From positions 1 through 64,000 of the IMG/VR virus record IMGVR_UViG_2597489997_000001: a DNA stretch of 64,000 nucleotides. One strand, given 5' to 3'. The stretch is from a virus. Lineage: Duplodnaviria; Caudoviricetes. The position numbers and the translations under genes are program-made. Shown here one piece after another: positions 15,996-55,019 of this stretch; the first letter of the stretch is position 1; the number at the start of each line of letters is the position of its first letter. The notes below the pieces were generated by a model. The model worked only from the letters and a program-made list of their open reading frames with translations, was not told where the DNA came from and did not search any database.

Positions 15996-16039
15996 AGTAA
16001 CCTCAATTGCTTCTTATTGTTGGAGATTAAATGAAATTA

Positions 16040-16116
16040 TGGTGGCCCCGGCGTGACTTGAACACGCGACCAAGCGATTATGAGTCACCTGCTCTAACCG
16101 TCTGAGCTACGGGGCC
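16040..16116 (-). tRNA. tRNA-Ile2 (CAU, lysidine type)
   Basis: Cloverleaf GGCCCCG..GACTCATAATCG..GGGGCCACCA, closely resembling enterobacterial tRNA-Ile2 rather than tRNA-Met; encoded CCA. Confidence 0.9.
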
Positions 16117-16120
16117 GGAA

Positions 16121-16196
16121 TGGCGCGCCCTACAGGATTCGAACCTGTGACCAATAGCTTAGAAGGCTACTGCTCTATCCACTGAGCTAAGAGCGC
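16121..16196 (-). tRNA. tRNA-Arg (UCU)
   Basis: Cloverleaf, anticodon loop CTTCTAA, GGTTCGAATCC T arm, CCA. Confidence 0.95.
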
Positions 16197-16204
16197 CGAA
16201 TTAC

Positions 16205-16471
16205 TTATTCTGCTACCTTAGCCAGATTTGCTTTATGGGAAGCCACTACAGGAACTAAACCCTGGAACCCATGCTTGTTGTACTGACCGTCAACGAAGAT
16301 CTGAGGAACAGTTTGAACTTTCTCTCCACACATCTCGCTGAGTTTAGCACCATCAATACCAGCTTCCACGATATTGACATATTCGTGAGTGATGCCTTCA
16401 ACACCTTCAACCAGTGCTTTAGCGCGATCACACCATGGACAATTAGGCTTACCATAAATTACAACATTCAT
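16205..16471 (-). CDS. grx: Glutaredoxin
   Basis: CPWC active site and TVPQIFVDG motif. Confidence 0.9.
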   Translation of the reverse strand: MNVVIYGKPNCPWCDRAKALVEGVEGITHEYVNIVEAGIDGAKLSEMCGEKVQTVPQIFVDGQYNKHGFQGLVPVVASHKANLAKVAE

Positions 16472-16701
16472 TTTGGGATTCCGTTTAAAGGAGAATGATA
16501 GAACATACCTCTGGATGGCATATTCAATATACCTGCTGGTTTCGTTGCAAACACGTTGTAGGGTTTACTTTCGCGGATACCTACCTCTAACGTTAATCTG
16601 GCAATCAGTGGATTAAAGAAACTAAAACCAGTAACTGTTAAATGTGGTTGCTCAGAAACATATTTAAAATCATTGGGAACAAAACCTTCTGGCACTTCCA
16701 T
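16468..16701 (-). CDS. Hypothetical protein
   Basis: 77 aa, AAGGA SD, ATGA overlap with grx. Confidence 0.6.
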   Translation of the reverse strand: MEVPEGFVPNDFKYVSEQPHLTVTGFSFFNPLIARLTLEVGIRESKPYNVFATKPAGILNMPSRGMFYHSPLNGIPK

Positions 16702-16732
16702 AATGATTCCTTAGAAGCAGTGGTCATAAATA

Positions 16733-16821
16733 TGGCAGAGAGTATGGGATTCGAACCCATGAGCCCCGAAGGACTGCCTCCTTAGCAGGGAGGTGACTTA
16801 AACCAACTCATCCAACTCTCT
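16733..16821 (-). tRNA. tRNA-Ser (GCU)
   Basis: Long variable arm, anticodon loop CTGCTAA, G73, CCA. Confidence 0.95.
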
Positions 16822-16825
16822 AATG

Positions 16826-16901
16826 TGGCGCTCGTGACAGGGCTCGAACCTGTGACATACGGATTAACAGTCCGCCGTTCTACCGACTGAACTACACGAG
16901 C
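16826..16901 (-). tRNA. tRNA-Asn (GUU)
   Basis: Anticodon arm GCGGA-CTGTTAA-TCCGT, G73, CCA. Confidence 0.95.
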
Positions 16902-17111
16902 TAAATTCTTGCCCCTCATTAGGATTCCGCCTAATGTTTAACCGGCTGGCCGCCGGGGTACAGTCTCAACAGAGTTACTTTAGGATTATTGTCCTAAAGA
17001 CAATCATGGGGATTTTAACCCACACTTCTACTAGACCTAGTCCTCTACCAACGAGGTGGAGTCGATACCACCCTTCTTAAAGCACTATCATAATAACACT
17101 TTAAGAAAGGT

Positions 17112-17235
17112 AGGTTCCCGCTTCGGTATTTAAACCAGCACTGATTCTACTTGTAGACTGATCACTCTTTTGGTTTACCTGACACCGTGGTCAATGTATC
17201 ACCTGAATGAGGCTACTTTCGAAGGGCAGCGGGAG
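17112..17235 (-). ncRNA. tRNA-like structured element (about 120 nt)
   Basis: Closing stem CTCCCGCT/AGCGGGAA with a 3' T-arm-like GGTTTAAATACC. Confidence 0.4.
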
Positions 17236-17241
17236 TTTGTC

Positions 17242-17466
17242 TTATCCAGCATTAAAGCTGTTTAAAACGAATCCTTGAGGGTGGAGAGAGTTGTTGGACA
17301 ACAACGTTATCTTTACAGTGTCTGCTGGGATTTTATCACAGCAACAATGATTGAATAACGCAGTAGCTAACCAGACCGCTCTGCTTTCTCTAGGAGCCGA
17401 TACCACACAGGCATCGAATTCGTCATAACTGATCGAATCAGTTCTTTCAACAAGATATAGGTTCAT
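17242..17466 (-). CDS. Small hypothetical phage protein
   Basis: 74 aa; MNLYLV..YDEFD..VV.A pattern common in small phage proteins. Confidence 0.7.
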   Translation of the reverse strand: MNLYLVERTDSISYDEFDACVVSAPRESRAVWLATALFNHCCCDKIPADTVKITLLSNNSLHPQGFVLNSFNAG

Positions 17467-17693
17467 CTATTTAATCCCAATTAGTGAAATAGGAGCTAAT
17501 ATGGCTCTTTATGTTTTTCGGCTAATTGTGACTCAAACCTAACATGTTGATTGTATCTACCAGATTGTGGTCCTGCACTATACAACACTGGCTAGCTGGA
17601 ACATGTAATCACCAGTGAGATTCCTGCTCGCTGCAACGCGTCCCCAGGAAGGGGAAGTTTTGTACTGCTTAACAGAGTATAGAAACTCAGTTA

Positions 17694-18017
17694 TTAAATT
17701 ACTTCATACCAATCAAGAGCTTGCGCATCAGAGACTGATGGAACCCAGGTATTGATTGTTTTAGTTTCTTCGTTAACGATAACAAAGAAAGGCTGGATAT
17801 AAGCAAAGTTTGCATCAAGAGGATTAACTGGATCAGTACCCTCAAATTTGATATGGTTGGTCGGAATAGATCCATGAATCTGAATATATAGGTGTTTGCC
17901 ATTCCATCCTTTACGGGCAAACTTACGGGCCTTCTTATTTTCCAGACTTCTGATCATGAGATCATTAACCATCCCGTAGGATAAGAGAAGAGGGCCTTTA
18001 ACTTGTTCTTGTGTCAT
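17694..18017 (-). CDS. tad2: Tad2-like (DUF2829) cyclic-nucleotide sponge
   Basis: ARKGWNGK and W.PS.SD..A.DW signature motifs. Confidence 0.8.
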   Translation of the reverse strand: MTQEQVKGPLLLSYGMVNDLMIRSLENKKARKFARKGWNGKHLYIQIHGSIPTNHIKFEGTDPVNPLDANFAYIQPFFVIVNEETKTINTWVPSVSDAQALDWYEVI

Positions 18018-18237
18018 GTTAATTTCCGGTGGGGTAAAAAGCTCCCTTGAATGGGTTTAATCAAACAAGGGAGAATGGTTGATCTAAGGAACACAGAAAC
18101 CCTAGATCGAGGCTACACCTGCCCGGTGCGCTTTCTGATGGGGACTTGATAGATCCCATTAAAAAGCTGAGGACATCCATCCTCAGTTGGTCAAATCGAC
18201 CCAATGCGTAAGCAGTTATATGAAGTATGCGGCGCGT

Positions 18238-18830
18238 ACTTCCCTATGGTTATTCTGAAAAACAAACATAGGGTAGTGGGGTCAGAAGACCCCAGCAACC
18301 AACCTCATTCGTACCGAAAGTATCCATACCTTCTTTATAAGAACTCATTCGGTAGAGAACTTATAAAGAAAGCAAGTGGGTTGATAAGGTCCACTCACTC
18401 TCAGTATTCCTTAATCATATCGCCAAATATAATTAAGACGTGGCAACCACACGATTTTAAACTACTGTTACAAACTCGCTTTTTTGGAAAGAACACGCAT
18501 GACCATGGCTTTCTTTATAGTGACTCATTCTAATAGAGATACCATAAAGAAAGCGAAGAGGGTGGAGGAAAAGTGAGACCAACCCTCTCAGCTTTAATTA
18601 CGAGACATGAGAGTTATGCAATGAAAGTTAGCAAGCAAGCAGTACCTTTCTTTATAAACACTCATTCAAGTGGAGTAATTATAAAGAAAGAGGAAGGTGA
18701 CTAGTCTTCCGCTTTGAGTATAGAGAGTTTTAATAATGATTGAATCATGGCAGCGAAACCGGATTCATTAAAGTACGATGGCGCGCACTTCTTAATAGGC
18801 ACTAATCCATTCAATACTTATTAAGAAGTG
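18238..18830. repeat. Array of repeated long hairpins (TTCTTTAT..ACTCATTC..ATAAAGAA)
   Basis: Near-identical copies at 18331-18370, 18508-18554, 18646-18690; divergent copies at 18238-18277, 18786-18830 and 17072-17110. Confidence 0.85.
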
Positions 18831-18951
18831 GACATGTTTAATTTTACATAACATATCCATCGCCAGTAGAAGTTTACTGGAAAAGCAAATGAGCAATGGA
18901 ATCTGGAAAGGGTCGCCGAAGATCCATTTAGCGTATACCTCTCTTTCTTCA

Positions 18952-18977
18952 CATAATATAAATCACTGCACTAAAAA
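18952..18977 (-). promoter_or_regulatory. Putative leftward promoter of the RNA island
   Basis: Minus strand TTTTAGTGCAGTGATTTATATTATG, similar to TTTTACTGATAGATTGTATATTATG upstream of chimallin. Confidence 0.5.
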
Positions 18978-18995
18978 TTAACAGACAGATATTAT
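18975..18995 (+). promoter_or_regulatory. Putative phage early promoter
   Basis: AAATTAACAGACAGATATTAT. Confidence 0.65.
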
Positions 18996-19039
18996 TAGAT
19001 TGAAACCATACATAGTTTTTATTATAGAGGAATTACCCC

Positions 19040-19645
19040 ATGCAAGTTGAACAATATCGCTCCCTGTTATCCGCCCAACTGTCCAAAACTTTCAAGGTCG
19101 ACCAGATCCGTGCATCTGTTGTCCCACCTTCTCAGTTAAATGGTCCACTGCTTCGCAGCATGACTGTTTACTGCTACGAATTCTTTATCAATAGCTGTGA
19201 ACGTTATTTCACATTCGCTGTTGAGTTGGACGGGAAAGTATTCTTTACACGACCTAAAGAAGGCATTCGTGAATATCTGACCCCATTGATCCGCAATAAG
19301 GATTTCGGGTTTGCTTTGACTGGTGAAATCCATAATCACAAAGACGTGGTTGGGAAGTTCATCGAGAGCAAAATCAACCGTGATGCCTGGACTATAATGG
19401 GAAATACACTGGCCGATGAATTAGGTGATGAGTCCATGATCAGTTTCGACTACTGGTTCGGGTTCAAAGTGACACGTCACCACAAAGAAGCTTTGAGCTT
19501 TGACAGTGATGTCGAATTAATGATTCGTCGCAAAGACAGCCCCGACATTGAAGTATATCGCGGTAACTTCGTCGATGGCAATATTGGAACGTTCCGTAAT
19601 AAGTACAACGAAACTGTTACCATGAGGGAAGTTGCACGGAGGTAA
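19040..19645 (+). CDS. Hypothetical protein
   Basis: 201 aa, GAGG SD. Confidence 0.75.
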   Translation: MQVEQYRSLLSAQLSKTFKVDQIRASVVPPSQLNGPLLRSMTVYCYEFFINSCERYFTFAVELDGKVFFTRPKEGIREYLTPLIRNKDFGFALTGEIHNHKDVVGKFIESKINRDAWTIMGNTLADELGDESMISFDYWFGFKVTRHHKEALSFDSDVELMIRRKDSPDIEVYRGNFVDGNIGTFRNKYNETVTMREVARR

Positions 19646-19646
19646 T

Positions 19647-19769
19647 ATGAATATATATCTCTGGATCCTTGTATTATTCTGTATCGGTCCGATCCTAGCC
19701 TTGGTAATCCACTGGCGTTGGGCCAAATGTAATCACTGTCGTCATGAAAATCATGACGAACCACACTGA
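19647..19769 (+). CDS. Small membrane protein (40 aa, absent from the ORF track)
   Basis: GGAGG SD; MNIYLWILVLFCIGPILALVIHWRWAKCNHCRHENHDEPH. Confidence 0.7.
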   Translation: MNIYLWILVLFCIGPILALVIHWRWAKCNHCRHENHDEPH

Positions 19770-45085: not shown

Positions 45086-45241
45086 TGATGGGAGCCCCAG
45101 AAAGCTATCAGTAATTTTTTACTGATAGATTGTATATTATGTAAACTAACATTCAAGCCACGTGCTTGAGTGTAAGACGGGAGTCGTACGTTTATTTGGC
45201 AAGTATACATACGATCAACTGTCAAATTTTTATGCGCCTAT

Positions 45242-45262
45242 AATATTTGAAGTCTATATTAT
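45242..45262 (+). promoter_or_regulatory. Putative early promoter of the chimallin operon
   Basis: AATATTTGAAGTCTATATTAT followed by TATGGTGTA. Confidence 0.5.
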
Positions 45263-45348
45263 TATGGTGTATAAGGAAACAAATGTTTTCTATATTTCTC
45301 CCACTAGTGTAAATTAACGTTAATTCATATATTAAGTAAGGAATAATT

Positions 45349-54993: not shown

Positions 54994-55019
54994 CCTAGCT
55001 CGGGATGTCCCGAGCTAGG
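54994..55019 (+). terminator. Terminator hairpin
   Basis: CCTAGCTCGGGA-TG-TCCCGAGCTAGG plus T tract. Confidence 0.75.

Follow-up and report, generated by a model that had tools for sequence, protein, structure and literature searches.

A conserved array of tandem hairpin modules between the divergent early genes of a phiKZ-like jumbo phage

We have analyzed a 64,000-nucleotide stretch of DNA (the window) from a phiKZ-like jumbo phage of 285 kb (genome 284,757 bp), for which a phage collection contained no near-identical DNA. An array of hairpins occupies the gap between two divergent early gene sets, and the ~1 kb of this locus has been left empty by annotation in every relative. The features of the locus are collected in Table 1. 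Downstream of the array on the minus strand lie genes for a Tad2-like (DUF2829) protein, for a conserved 74-residue protein with no assigned function, and for four tRNAs. Homologues of the Tad2-like gene are found at the same position in eight distinct relatives (14 of 16 matched records); the loci of Aeromonas phages have no Tad2-like gene, and there the array leads directly into the tRNAs. The 74-aa gene matches annotated proteins of Survivor, AH04, Kc263 and Sureiya in tblastn, with E between 8e-16 and 5e-15. The constant neighbor on the other side is an early gene for a 201-aa protein, which has homologues in 24 phage records and four IMG/VR contigs.

Table 1. Features of the array locus, in window coordinates
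Feature	Position	Strand	Basis and remarks
Early gene, 201 aa	19040..19645	+	Constant neighbor on the other side of the array
Early promoter of rightward genes, CAGACAGATATTATTAGATTGAA	18966..19009	+	Genome-wide consensus upstream of plus-strand genes
Leftward promoter-like element, core TATATTATG at 18960-18952	18947..18982	-	Sequence match
M5: long hairpin 18786-18830 and small palindromic hairpin 18830-18858	18786..18858	-	R1 45.9 bits (plus strand 28.4); folds
M4: long hairpin 18646-18690 and G+C hairpin 18692-18710	18646..18710	-	R1 48.6 bits (plus strand 33.7)
M3: long hairpin 18508-18554 and G+C hairpin 18557-18588	18508..18588	-	R1 45.7 bits (plus strand 23.5)
M2: long hairpin 18331-18370 and G+C hairpin 18375-18395	18331..18395	-	R1 47.8 bits (plus strand 26.0)
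M1: long hairpin 18238-18277 and G+C tetraloop hairpin 18278-18293	18238..18293	-	R1 38.1 bits, minus strand only
M0: G+C hairpin 18167-18186, then CUUUUUAAUG opening long hairpin 18130-18167	18130..18186	-	Terminator scan
Hairpin CTCCCTTG...CAAGGGAG, then CUUUUUACC	18033..18073	-	About 15 nt before the Tad2-like start codon
Tad2-like (DUF2829) gene, 107 aa	17694..18017	-	Pfam PF11195, E 1.3e-13; downstream of array
Conserved gene, 74 aa, function not assigned	17242..17466	-	tblastn and phrog_5444, E 6.6e-15
Seventh long hairpin, between the 74-aa gene and tRNA-Asn	17070..17111	-	R1 34.6 bits, E 3.5e-4 (plus strand 19.4)
tRNA genes Met, Arg, Ser, Asn	16040..16901	-	ARAGORN and Rfam; downstream of array

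The 201-aa protein was considered as an RNA-binding or RNA-cutting partner of the array. Its predicted structure (pLDDT 91.8) comprises two alpha+beta halves. A Foldseek search of the PDB gave no match at E 0.001 or better; the weak rows included latexin, an MHC platform, RnlA and tandem-dsRBD proteins, the last at E 0.015-0.08 and TM 0.12-0.18. The BFVD library returned the protein's own family only, and the best VIA-align score (Z 6.4, for NTF2/cystatin-like and Med17-like halves) lies below the level that is meaningful for that tool. With no convincing fold relative the candidate was rejected, and the comparison supports no function. We found no RNase III or dsRBD domain encoded by the phage, and recognized no partner nuclease gene among 16 reading frames scanned for family membership, one of which lies ~15 kb away.

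A promoter and a promoter-like element stand back to back at the upstream end of the array. The rightward early promoter also matches that of N1M2 pORF256 (PMC7058600, Supplementary Table 4). The leftward core TATATTATG occurs twice in the genome, at 45133 on the plus strand and at 18960 on the minus strand, in each case within a divergent intergenic region, and its TATAT-TATGT is invariant in all eight aligned relatives. It resembles the early-promoter core given in PMC7058600 for N1M2, for OBP, which is named as its closest relative, and for phiKZ; the long early consensus is represented without its upstream half, and the element is known here by sequence match. We also considered whether each module might carry a promoter of its own, UAAUUAAAGUG, which resembles the 3′ half of the N1M2 consensus. 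This was rejected, because the real promoters of the genome all carry (G/T)ATATTAT, which is absent from the modules.

The original prediction, made from the letters of the DNA, described three near-identical inverted repeats. The pattern TTCTTTAT-N(14-34)-ATAAAGAA is indeed found at 18331-18370, 18511-18551 and 18648-18688, and at no other site in the 284,757-bp genome; it matched none of 100 dinucleotide shuffles of the window, and a backwards control pattern had no site in the genome. We built a covariance model of the long hairpin (R1), which can serve for annotation and which matches six places in the genome of this phage with E from 3.6e-7 to 3.5e-4, all between 17070 and 18831. The model recovers these three and the divergent copies proposed at the same time, at 18238-18277 and 18786-18830 (both preceded by GGCGCG(T/C)ACTTC) and at 17070-17111. 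All six predicted copies are real, but the count was one short, as a further module at 18130-18186 (M0) brings the total to seven, beginning at 18786, 18646, 18508, 18331, 18238, 18130 and 17070. R1 falls short of E 1 on M0, and matches its N1M2 counterpart with E 0.048. The start-to-start spacings of 93, 180, 137 and 141 nt are as predicted, and so are the variable hairpins to the right of the repeats: GGGGTC/GACCCC in M1, AGTGG/CCACT in M2, AGAGGGT/ACCCTCT in M3 and GGAAG/CTTCC in M4. An additional small hairpin, GGACATGTT/AACATATCC, belongs to M5, and in relatives it carries the promoter-like GAGATATTATG.

In each module a short G+C hairpin directly adjoins an A/U-rich hairpin of 19 bp. Read along the minus strand, the order is a single-stranded spacer, UAAAG(Y)G, the short G+C hairpin and then the 19-bp hairpin, and the units are separated by 50-137 nt of unlike sequence. 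The G+C hairpin of M3 has a CU-rich loop, CUUUUCCUCC on the minus strand. M2 is additional to the modules of N1M2, Yubaba, SXP01, Kc263, pEt-SU, Survivor and AH04, and corresponds to an insertion of one module that is unique to the window in the alignment (columns 560-740).

Is the structure of the long hairpin under selection, and if so, on which strand? We aligned 47 hairpins from this phage and 11 relatives, giving 893 stem cells. On the minus strand 90.6% of the cells are paired, compared with 79.5% on the plus strand; shuffled alignments gave 71.0 ± 1.0%, with none of 500 reaching the observed value, and sliding the partners reduced pairing to 44-51%. Compensatory changes affecting both sides are seen at 15 of the 19 stem pairs in this alignment, on which RNAalifold was also run. 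There are 115 G-U cells on the minus strand, as against 16 A-C cells, i.e., those that would be G-U on the plus strand, and from this excess we conclude that selection has acted on the structure of the minus strand, which also encodes the downstream Tad2-like gene and tRNAs. The energetics point the same way. As minus-strand RNA 46 of 53 hairpins are more stable (summed energies −813.6 compared with −575.1 kcal/mol), the 801-nt region folds with −259.1 kcal/mol (z −8.98) compared with −225.7 kcal/mol (z −5.50) on the plus strand, the z scores being based on 20 shuffles per strand, and every match to the covariance model scores higher on the minus strand.

The stem contains the conserved bases. 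The loops are of 4-10 nt, and the corresponding columns 24-33 of the 47-sequence alignment contain no conserved motif. Within the stem (G/A)AGU pairs with AYUY, and a U-G pair adjoining an invariant U-A is retained in 31 of the 47 copies. The conserved loop ACTCATTC that had been proposed is identical between copies within this phage, but is largely stem, and only (G/A)AGU, read on the minus strand, is kept by the relatives. The ACTC pairs with the GAG noted earlier, and on the other strand the helix continues via G-U pairs. The polarity of the hairpin is fixed in all 47 copies. In the minus-strand RNA a hairpin with a minimum of 5 bp, three or more of them G-C pairs, lies within 4 nt of the 5′ side of 38 of 46 long hairpins, whereas an equivalent G+C hairpin adjoins the 3′ side of 14 of the 46. 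The original prediction had left open whether the units act as RNA or as DNA. Function at the RNA level fits better, given the compensatory changes and the G-U excess, but the strand had been wrongly assigned. The array seems to be a structured non-coding RNA read from the minus strand.

The flanks of the modules resemble terminators. Ordinary terminators in this genome consist of a G+C hairpin followed by (C)UUUAUGUUUGU, with one having CUUUCUUUUAUGUUUGU. The module arms read CUUUCUUUAUR, and that of M1 reads UAUGUUUGUUUU, the usual terminator tail of the phage as judged from its own terminators and from the N1M2 entries in Table S5 of PMC7058600. In the 12 nt following the G+C hairpin there are on average 6.2 U on the minus strand, compared with 3.5 on the plus strand. 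A simple terminator scan flagged M0, on the minus strand, as the only site in the array, and its N1M2 counterpart is an ARNold terminator (complement 251572-251608; PMC7058600, Table S5); M0 is the probable end of the non-coding RNA. The modules share with the intrinsic terminators of this phage group the G+C hairpin, the A-rich run upstream and the U-rich tract downstream, with a tail similar to (C)UUUAUGUUUGU, so that each G+C hairpin with its U-rich arm resembles a terminator of the phage. They differ in that the G+C hairpins of M2-M5 have 5-9 bp and loops of 9-13 nt, whereas terminators elsewhere in the genome have stems of 10-12 bp closed by tetraloops, and a tail without a complement downstream; R1 found no match on these ordinary terminators. 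A further hairpin just ahead of the Tad2-like gene is present in the same arrangement in N1M2 and Yubaba. Space for a separate promoter is scarce there, so that transcription of the gene probably depends on read-through.

The array is conserved, and confined to one locus. R1 matches the same locus in all 12 GenBank relatives that were fetched, and in five whole relative genomes the matches are confined to the orthologous gap, bar a marginal one with E 0.27. Three metagenomic relatives outside the training set have 3, 4 and 4 minus-strand matches, of which 10 of 11 lie just upstream of the flanking gene; the remaining one (L144:468-509) is ~1.6 kb further out. There are 3 to 6 copies per gap across the phages, and the hairpin at 17070-17111 has a counterpart in SXP01 (L003:4029-4070). 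The modules are orthologous, and can be aligned in the same order between phages with 23-44% protein identity; the locus is among the few stretches alignable as DNA across phages of Klebsiella, Serratia, Kosakonia, Edwardsiella, Pantoea, Erwinia and Shewanella. Aeromonas phages have the same hairpin modules in the same place. No copy was found by R1 in phiKZ, 201phi2-1, EL or SPN3US.

Relatives in viral contigs were recovered by an alignment-based search, a single-protein search having given none. The raw pattern TTTCTTTAT-N14-30-ATAAAGAAA occurs in at least 121 stretches of viral contigs, but these were rejected as chance A/T-rich palindromes; among 80 such loci fetched, one gave even a weak match to the model. 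A search for RNA sequencing runs matching 16000-19700 gave none, and two other runs that were aligned proved to be contigs of another phage, which covered 16406-17107 only. Rfam 15 at the gathering threshold returned four tRNAs only in the whole window, and with E up to 10 over both strands of 16900-19100 gave four chance-level rows with scores far below gathering. The literature searched, in which the supplementary tables covered were those of PMC7058600 alone, contained no description of the array.

The sequence between the hairpins is also conserved. The motifs GUGCUCCGC, GCCAUCGUG, GCCAUUGUU and CAUUGCUCAU recur in the spacers of distant phages, which suggests that the RNA between the hairpins matters. 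This runs counter to a role of the unique segments as guides with free turnover, since the modules and several of the spacer motifs align at 23-44% protein identity. Nor did the search for complementarity suggested in the original prediction find targets: for 304 crude gene calls in the genome of the phage itself the duplex energies between spacers and start regions were no better than those of shuffled spacers, and blastn of 18130-18960 against E. coli genomes and plasmids gave no match. Minus-strand reading frames starting from the AUG of GAAUGAGU are present in the window and were rejected, the AUG not being conserved in relatives.

What might such an RNA do? The explanation we prefer, which we hold tentatively, is that the array is an early leader RNA whose modules form or process 3′ ends, by termination or RNase III-like cleavage, releasing small RNAs and metering read-through. 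We infer transcription, termination, cleavage and the activity of the released RNAs from the features described above. The segment from ~18960 down to ~18130 would be a minus-strand gene for a highly structured non-coding RNA of ~0.7-0.8 kb, starting at the early-type promoter that backs onto the rightward one and lying upstream of the Tad2-like gene, the small conserved gene and the four tRNA genes. This RNA would contain six tandem modules, with the seventh further down at 17070-17111. Within each module the G+C hairpin and U-rich arm (CUUUCUUUAU...) would act in the manner of a terminator, so that some polymerases stop. In RNA that is read through, the downstream A-rich arm would capture the U-rich tail to generate the 19-bp duplex, a likely target for a nuclease specific for double strands. 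This would have to be the RNase III of the host, because the phage appears to have neither an RNase III nor a dsRBD domain of its own. Either termination or cleavage would leave the same product, a spacer RNA with a G+C hairpin cap and a U-rich tail. The outcome could be twofold, with several small stable RNAs released early in infection, and with the array setting how much transcription and intact mRNA reach the Tad2-like gene and the tRNAs.

The RNase III-like processing of the original prediction is a reasonable idea, with the long hairpins as putative substrates, although 19 bp is at the low end for this enzyme, whose sites of the T7 or sib type span about two turns of duplex RNA in a transcript. 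Some features fit the punctuation of 3′ ends less well. Termination requires no downstream complement. The (G/A)AGU and the retained U-G pair are not explained by termination, and are unneeded for simple recognition by RNase III; they look more like a specific protein contact. A more ambitious version, possible but rather unlikely in our view, is that the array is an RNA-based take-over or anti-defence device beside Tad2, serving as a small-RNA precursor or as a set of 19-bp duplex decoys. In the former case a jumbo phage of the nucleus-forming type would produce the precursor within the first minutes of infection, and the modules would punctuate it into five or six small RNAs, each with a terminator-like 3′ cap and a single-stranded CU-rich segment complementary to ribosome-binding sites, which would silence host translation or time that of the phage. 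In the latter the 19-bp duplexes would tie up a host protein, either a nuclease for double-stranded RNA or a defence protein that senses RNA.

Other readings of the same RNA give less weight to cleavage. CsrB sponges CsrA, and adenovirus VA RNA sponges PKR; the uncut 19-bp hairpins might similarly offer repeated high-affinity sites early in infection for a protein of host or phage, for instance an RNA chaperone, a defence protein that senses RNA or a nuclease that binds double-stranded RNA. The repetition of a single type of hairpin five to seven times per RNA would suit this purpose, as would the early-type promoter, the adjoining anti-defence gene, a conservation that exceeds the needs of pairing (the fixed polarity, (G/A)AGU, the U-G and the invariant U-A) and restriction to a single locus, expected of a gene and not of a genome-wide signal. 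We nonetheless think a sponge unlikely, as no RNA-binding fold could be convincingly assigned to the flanking 201-aa protein and no other candidate partner has emerged, the loops contain no conserved motif such as GGA, and the abutting G+C hairpins with their terminator-like flanks are left unexplained. It is less likely still that the array is a purely cis-acting gate, in which stacked weak terminators or pause sites restrain transcription from the early promoter, the short RNAs are inactive by-products, and the Tad2-like gene and tRNAs are expressed only with a terminator-resistant polymerase or an antiterminator. The downstream A-rich arm would then be superfluous, yet it is the best conserved and most strongly covarying feature; conserved spacer motifs would not be expected, and an anti-defence gene should be needed early and not after a delay. 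A gate would, on the other hand, account for the terminator-like flanks, for the invariable position and orientation of the array, with the promoter-like core on one side and the downstream genes on the other, for the 3 to 6 copies per gap as in a dosage-type element, and for the further hairpin with a U-run directly before the Tad2-like start codon.

The remaining alternatives do not involve a minus-strand RNA. In phage N4 extruded template-strand hairpins with stems of 5-7 bp and loops of 3 nt recruit the phage polymerase, and here too hairpins on the template strand might recruit a phage polymerase, or hairpins or cruciforms might mark a replication origin or another protein-loading site. 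A/T-rich palindromes of 19 bp should extrude easily, the locus is a point of strand divergence, and the cumulative G-C skew of the record as laid out has its minimum at 17-18 kb. Moreover, the strand asymmetry alone is compatible with a hairpin in DNA, where G-T pairs are also tolerated in the single strand, and the favored strand is the template for rightward transcription. However, a cruciform folds both strands, and the plus-strand arms would have A-C mismatches at 115 of the 893 cells; a symmetric double-stranded iteron or cruciform is disfavored because it would not produce a G-U excess on one strand. The skew minimum tracks the small leftward gene block and the curve does not close, so we rejected it as a sign of an origin; and the stems of 19 bp and loops of 4-10 nt are not those of N4 promoters. 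The early promoters of phiKZ-type phages are double-stranded A/T-rich motifs, according to PMC7058600, and one is present at the locus in normal form. A DNA-level element is accordingly improbable.

Function of the plus strand as tiny translated frames or leader-peptide attenuators is more improbable again. Each spacer would provide a ribosome-binding site for a frame that extends into the long hairpin, with the G+C hairpin and CUUUAAUUA serving as terminator downstream. Over ten gaps the plus strand contains 31 Shine-Dalgarno-plus-ATG motifs, compared with 7.8 ± 3.4 in shuffled sequences (none of 300 reaching the observed number) and 4 on the minus strand; they occur in several relatives and are well spaced in pEt-SU, Survivor, ACP1, CF8 and SXP01, and an A-tract, hairpin and short U-tract are present in the rightward direction also. 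This excess could mean that the other strand is read as well. Yet the window, Kc263 and AH04 have no such site, the interior of the gap has no rightward promoter-like core, and the hairpin energetics and G-U counts favor the minus strand. The frames themselves were rejected as small proteins; they are of 1-38 codons, and neither length nor sequence is conserved even in close relatives, frames beginning MAI... being of 20, 7 and 5 codons and MQPTLE... diverging after six residues. On the minus strand the same motifs would be segments complementary to ribosome-binding sites, as found in many small regulatory RNAs. We attach almost no weight to the idea that the array is a small palindromic mobile element that accumulated by chance in a non-coding gap. 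The units are palindromic, A/T-rich and multi-copy, and there is one more module in the window than in its relatives, but in six whole genomes of 238-285 kb there are no copies elsewhere apart from the marginal match, the modules are orthologous and in common order, and their pairing has been preserved by compensatory changes.

Returning to the early leader RNA with punctuated 3′ ends, its elements have parallels in known systems. In the early RNA of T7 the RNase III processing hairpins R0.3-R1.3 separate protein-coding messages, and at lambda sib/tI a terminator together with downstream sequence forms a longer duplex in read-through RNA only, which is a nuclease target. The array shares with T7 the presence of several related long hairpins in one (here putative) early phage transcript, and with sib the logic whereby a U-rich terminator tail is captured by a downstream A-rich arm. 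Unlike in T7, the sequence between the hairpins contains no conserved reading frames. Unlike either, six or seven units lie within 0.8-1.9 kb, each fused to a G+C hairpin, and the 19-bp stems contain the conserved (G/A)AGU and U-G, cleavage being hypothetical for the array. Sponge RNAs of the Csr/Rsm type are built from short hairpins that carry GGA in the loop. As in CsrB and RsmZ, many copies of one type of hairpin are placed in one non-coding RNA, but the array has long stems, in which its conserved bases are found, and unconserved loops without the GGA.

Small RNAs have been described in giant phages, including sRNA005 of 201phi2-1 with counterparts in phiKZ, EL and PA3, and one next to a tRNA (PMC11512511). 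As with the array, these belong to phiKZ-related phages, some derive from 5′ leaders by early termination, and one is upstream of a tRNA. However, those in the accessible part of that paper are single, under 250 nt and at other loci (upstream of a tail gene), and no array of repeated modules is described there. The alternation of repeats with unlike sequence recalls CRISPR and ToxI, whose RNAs are cut at each repeat to unit length. The original prediction had held that the geometry is not that of CRISPR, and we agree; the structured units, with dissimilar sequence in between, form a genuine array that has been under selection, but not a CRISPR array. CRISPR repeats are near-identical, direct and of fixed length, with spacers of almost constant length. 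The repeats here are covarying hairpins of 40-47 nt, with 75-90% identity over 20 nt and the irregular spacing given above, the spacers are conserved between phages, and no cas hit was found among 15 neighboring reading frames (Pfam, PHROG). The antitoxin RNA ToxI consists of direct repeats of ~36 nt placed head to tail beside an endoribonuclease toxin gene, whereas the units of the array are not head to tail. A relationship to Y RNA and Ro60 finds no support either, as the 284,757-bp genome has no match to the TROVE domain (PF05731), which was detected in control genomes.

The array matches no described RNA family in Rfam 15 or in the literature searched. Giant phiKZ-like phages are models for the study of phage 'nuclei' and of escape from bacterial immunity, and to our knowledge almost nothing is known of their non-coding RNAs; transcriptome reports on giant phages have given a few single small RNAs. 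If the array is transcribed as an early RNA, it may be among the first products of infection, and may control the expression of an anti-defence gene and of phage tRNAs as well as supplying regulatory or decoy RNAs. It would also be a clean case of a serially repeated module of terminator plus complement, and is directly testable in several cultured phages.

The row of A/U-rich 19-bp long hairpins and short G+C hairpins on the minus strand (17070-18858) is a genuine structured element, conserved and specific to one clade. The sequence features claimed in the original prediction were all found in the window. The strict pattern TTCTTTAT-N(14-34)-ATAAAGAA matches the three near-identical repeats, at 18331, 18511 and 18648; it matched in none of 100 shuffles, and the whole genome contains no further site. 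Divergent copies at 18786 and 17070 were recovered by a repeat finder along with these same units, at unit spacings of 180, 137 and 141 nt, and the second, variable hairpins are indeed present to the right of each unit. The list of units holds for those named, and the count was short by a further one at 18130-18186 (module M0). The motif ACTC had been taken as the loop; its minus-strand complement (G/A)AGU pairs with AYUY across the stem, and the true loop is therefore just 4-10 nt. A search for targets of the spacers gave none in the phage's own start regions, E. coli genomes or plasmids.

The window covers the opening 64 kb of a virus record (284,757 bp, rated complete), and DNA similarity is confined to the jumbo phages Klebsiella N1M2, Serratia Yubaba and Sureiya, Kosakonia Kc263 and Shewanella SXP01. 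In the available part of its description, N1M2 is grouped beside Pseudomonas phage OBP among phiKZ-related phages; it is reported to have multisubunit RNA polymerases of both virion and non-virion type, and its early promoter is predicted to read TBYAWWWWWTTTCARRYAKATATTATYWAAGTGWA (PMC7058600). The 201-aa protein always flanks the array; it gives a confident model (pLDDT 91.8) with two alpha+beta halves, for which structure searches returned no convincing relative, and it belongs to no Pfam or PHROG family.

Features of the array locus and of the fetched loci of relatives (L-numbers; L001 is N1M2 and L003 is SXP01)
Feature	Position	Strand	Remarks
Four tRNA genes	16040-16901	minus	
Conserved 74-aa gene	17242-17466	minus	phrog_5444
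Tad2-like gene	17694-18017	minus	PF11195, E 1.3e-13
About 1 kb without a convincing gene	18018-19039		holds the array
201-aa early gene	19040-19645	plus	long series of plus-strand genes after it
Palindrome with GAGATATTATG, relatives	L001 5561-5590; L002 5533-5562; L004 5561-5588; L008 about 2284-2312	minus	
Strong ribosome-binding sites plus ATG, relatives' spacers	L008 2081-2265; L009 2085-2222; L013 2160-2377; L003 5185-5301	plus	

Several features of the neighbouring sequence were also noted. The 74-aa frame looks unannotated and is a conserved gene (C-terminus ...SSFNAG) with homologues in Survivor, AH04, Kc263 and Sureiya. N1M2_258 (79 aa, L001 4712-4951) is the counterpart of the Tad2-like (DUF2829) gene (tblastn E 3e-9), and its record name 'methionine--tRNA ligase' looks wrong. 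Over 96 nt, non-coding DNA between the Tad2-like and 74-aa genes (17560-17653) matches N1M2, Yubaba and Sureiya at 83-84% identity, exceeding the identity of adjacent coding DNA; the surrounding 227-nt intergenic region has an unremarkable folding energy (z -0.63) and no Rfam match. The non-coding segment directly after tRNA-Asn (16902-17109) shares 78% identity with SXP01 across 218 nt. It is near-identical in contigs of another phage from two public runs, which diverge at 17107, precisely where the seventh hairpin (17070-17111) lies. Its minus strand contains a T-arm-like GGGTTAAAATCCC, perhaps a decayed tRNA; ARAGORN called no tRNA there.

The orthologous gap was taken from 12 GenBank records: N1M2, Yubaba, Sureiya, SXP01, Kc263, pEt-SU, Survivor, AH04 and the Aeromonas phages ACP1, PS1, CF8 and ZPAH34. 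All 13 gaps, that of the window included, contain long A/T-rich hairpins of this type, with 3-6 in each. The proteins flanking these gaps share just 23-41% identity with that of the window, indicating that the hairpins have been kept over a long time. The eight closest phages can be aligned module by module, the window having one extra module; the Aeromonas phages lack a Tad2-like gene, and their array leads directly into tRNA genes.

A covariance model of the long hairpin (R1) matched six places in the phage's own genome, all on the minus strand (17070-18831), five of which also match on the plus strand, more weakly. In the whole genomes of N1M2, Kc263, pEt-SU, AH04 and CF8 the matches lie in the orthologous gap only, bar one marginal (AH04, E 0.27); since these loci were training data, it is the absence elsewhere that is informative. 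Three untrained IMG/VR contigs, found via alignment of the flanking protein, gave 3, 4 and 4 matches, each scoring best on the minus strand. Of the 11 matches, ten fall in the ~500 nt that precede the homologous gene, and the other (L144:468-509) is ~1.6 kb further out, resembling the seventh copy of the window. At E 1 there was no R1 match in phiKZ, 201phi2-1, EL or SPN3US, and Rfam held no matching family at either threshold.

RNA folds were computed on either strand for 53 hairpins drawn from 12 sources. The minus strand gave the more stable fold in 46/53 and the plus strand in 7/53, with summed energies of -813.6 vs -575.1 kcal/mol and 100 vs 18 G-U pairs. A minus-strand alignment was made of 47 hairpins, omitting three M0-type units (N1M2, Yubaba, SXP01), L002:5222, L011:1167 (identical to an ACP1 unit) and L013:1685 (poor), and RNAalifold reduced it to a single long stem. 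Standard pairs occupy 90.6% of the 893 cells of this 19-pair stem, compared with 71.0 ± 1.0 for shuffles (0/500 reach 90.6%), 44-51% for slid partners and 79.5% on the plus strand. The cells comprise 694 Watson-Crick, 115 G-U, 16 A-C (which are G-U on the opposite strand) and 68 of any other type. Both sides change at 15/19 pairs, and one U-G adjoining an invariant U-A is retained in 31/47 copies. The 801 nt of 18160-18960 fold at -259.1 kcal/mol (z -8.98) on the minus strand vs -225.7 (z -5.50) on the plus, with 20 shuffles each. The pairing, the compensatory changes and the strand asymmetry thus show that structure has been selected, on the minus strand, which also carries the Tad2-like gene and the tRNAs. 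It is very probable that the array is a minus-strand RNA feature.

Each module reads, on the minus strand, spacer, UAAAG(Y)G, short G+C hairpin, 0-4 nt and long hairpin, the last having CUUUCUUUAUR as its 5' arm. A 5' hairpin (at least 5 bp, at least 3 G-C pairs) abuts 38/46 long hairpins, and a 3' one 14/46. Orthologous small hairpins differ in sequence yet keep their pairing (GGAAG/CUUCC, GGGAUG/CAUCCC, GGGGAGG/CCUCCCC), and the spacer motifs GUGCUCCGC, GCCAUCGUG, GCCAUUGUU and CAUUGCUCAU are retained across genera.

A rightward promoter before the 201-aa gene fits the genome consensus and N1M2 promoter pORF256, as listed in the accessible part of PMC7058600 Supplementary Table 4. The minus strand carries TATATTATG in back-to-back arrangement with this promoter. 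It shares its core with the phiKZ-type early promoter, but of the long consensus the upstream half is missing; TATAT-TATGT is invariant in 8/8 aligned phages. TATATTATG occurs in the genome here and at 45133 (+) only, the latter within a second divergent intergenic region (45086-45348), where another early-type core lies at 45255. The first module's small hairpin is palindromic in relatives and contains, on the minus strand, the early-promoter-like core GAGATATTATG, which may be a second leftward promoter; the window's version, GGATATGTTATG (18858-18847), is degenerate.

At the far end of the array, a terminator scan picked out M0 (18186-18130), a G+C hairpin followed by CUUUUUAAUG, as a minus-strand terminator, and the N1M2 counterpart of M0 appears in what is available of Table S5 (PMC7058600). 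A whole-genome scan found the ordinary terminators to be G+C hairpins of 10-12 bp with (C)UUUAUGUUUGU after them, one having CUUUCUUUUAUGUUUGU; the available N1M2 terminator table has the same tail (PMC7058600 Table S5). The shared tail (C)TTTATGTTTGT recurs in the phage genome, e.g. at 54994, 71846, 94938, 215258 and 248472, and also in N1M2, a hint that termination in this phage group is partly sequence-specific.

The module arms (CUUUCUUUAUR; UAUGUUUGUUUU in M1) resemble this terminator tail, and the 12 nt past the small hairpin average 6.2 U on the minus strand vs 3.5 on the plus. The array also has an A-rich, tail-pairing arm just downstream that is found in no ordinary terminator here, and a stack of terminators acting purely in cis is quite unlikely. 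The nearest precedent for the tail-capturing arm is lambda sib/tI, where RNase III cuts a longer duplex that arises in the read-through RNA; the early RNA of phage T7 likewise has a series of related RNase III hairpins. Domain searches found no RNase III, dsRBD or Ro60 domain encoded in the phage genome. The conserved (G/A)AGU and U-G pair are unneeded for termination or simple duplex recognition and so suggest a specific protein contact. That the array serves as a protein sponge is unlikely.

An element acting as DNA is improbable, and a selfish repeat is hardly credible. Translation of the plus strand was also considered. Ten gaps contain 31 Shine-Dalgarno-plus-ATG motifs on that strand vs 7.8 ± 3.4 in shuffles (0/300 reach 31), and the minus strand has 4. 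The plus-strand motifs cluster in pEt-SU, Survivor, ACP1, CF8 and SXP01, with none in the window, Kc263 or AH04, and the frames behind them are of 1-38 codons and unconserved (MAI..., MNNG... and MQPTLE... in relatives' spacers). These motifs may be real mini-frames on rightward RNA or, read on the minus strand, may be anti-ribosome-binding-site segments of small RNAs; that plus-strand mini-frames account for the array is very improbable.

The literature covered comprises the available parts of PMC7058600 and its tables S4 and S5, PMC11512511, PMC8244752 and PMC7824862. The giant-phage transcriptomes, as far as accessible, report a few single small RNAs, among them one beside a tRNA and a conserved one that lies upstream of a tail gene (PMC11512511), and a modular array is not described in these portions. 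The literature search returned no paper on the array locus, and the papers listed for the relatives are genome descriptions only. The array is akin to known kinds of phage RNA punctuation and is in no described family. The reading that we tentatively favour is that an early leader RNA of the minus strand would be punctuated by the modules through 3'-end formation and processing, and that this punctuation would both release small capped RNAs and meter how much read-through reaches the Tad2-like gene and the tRNAs.
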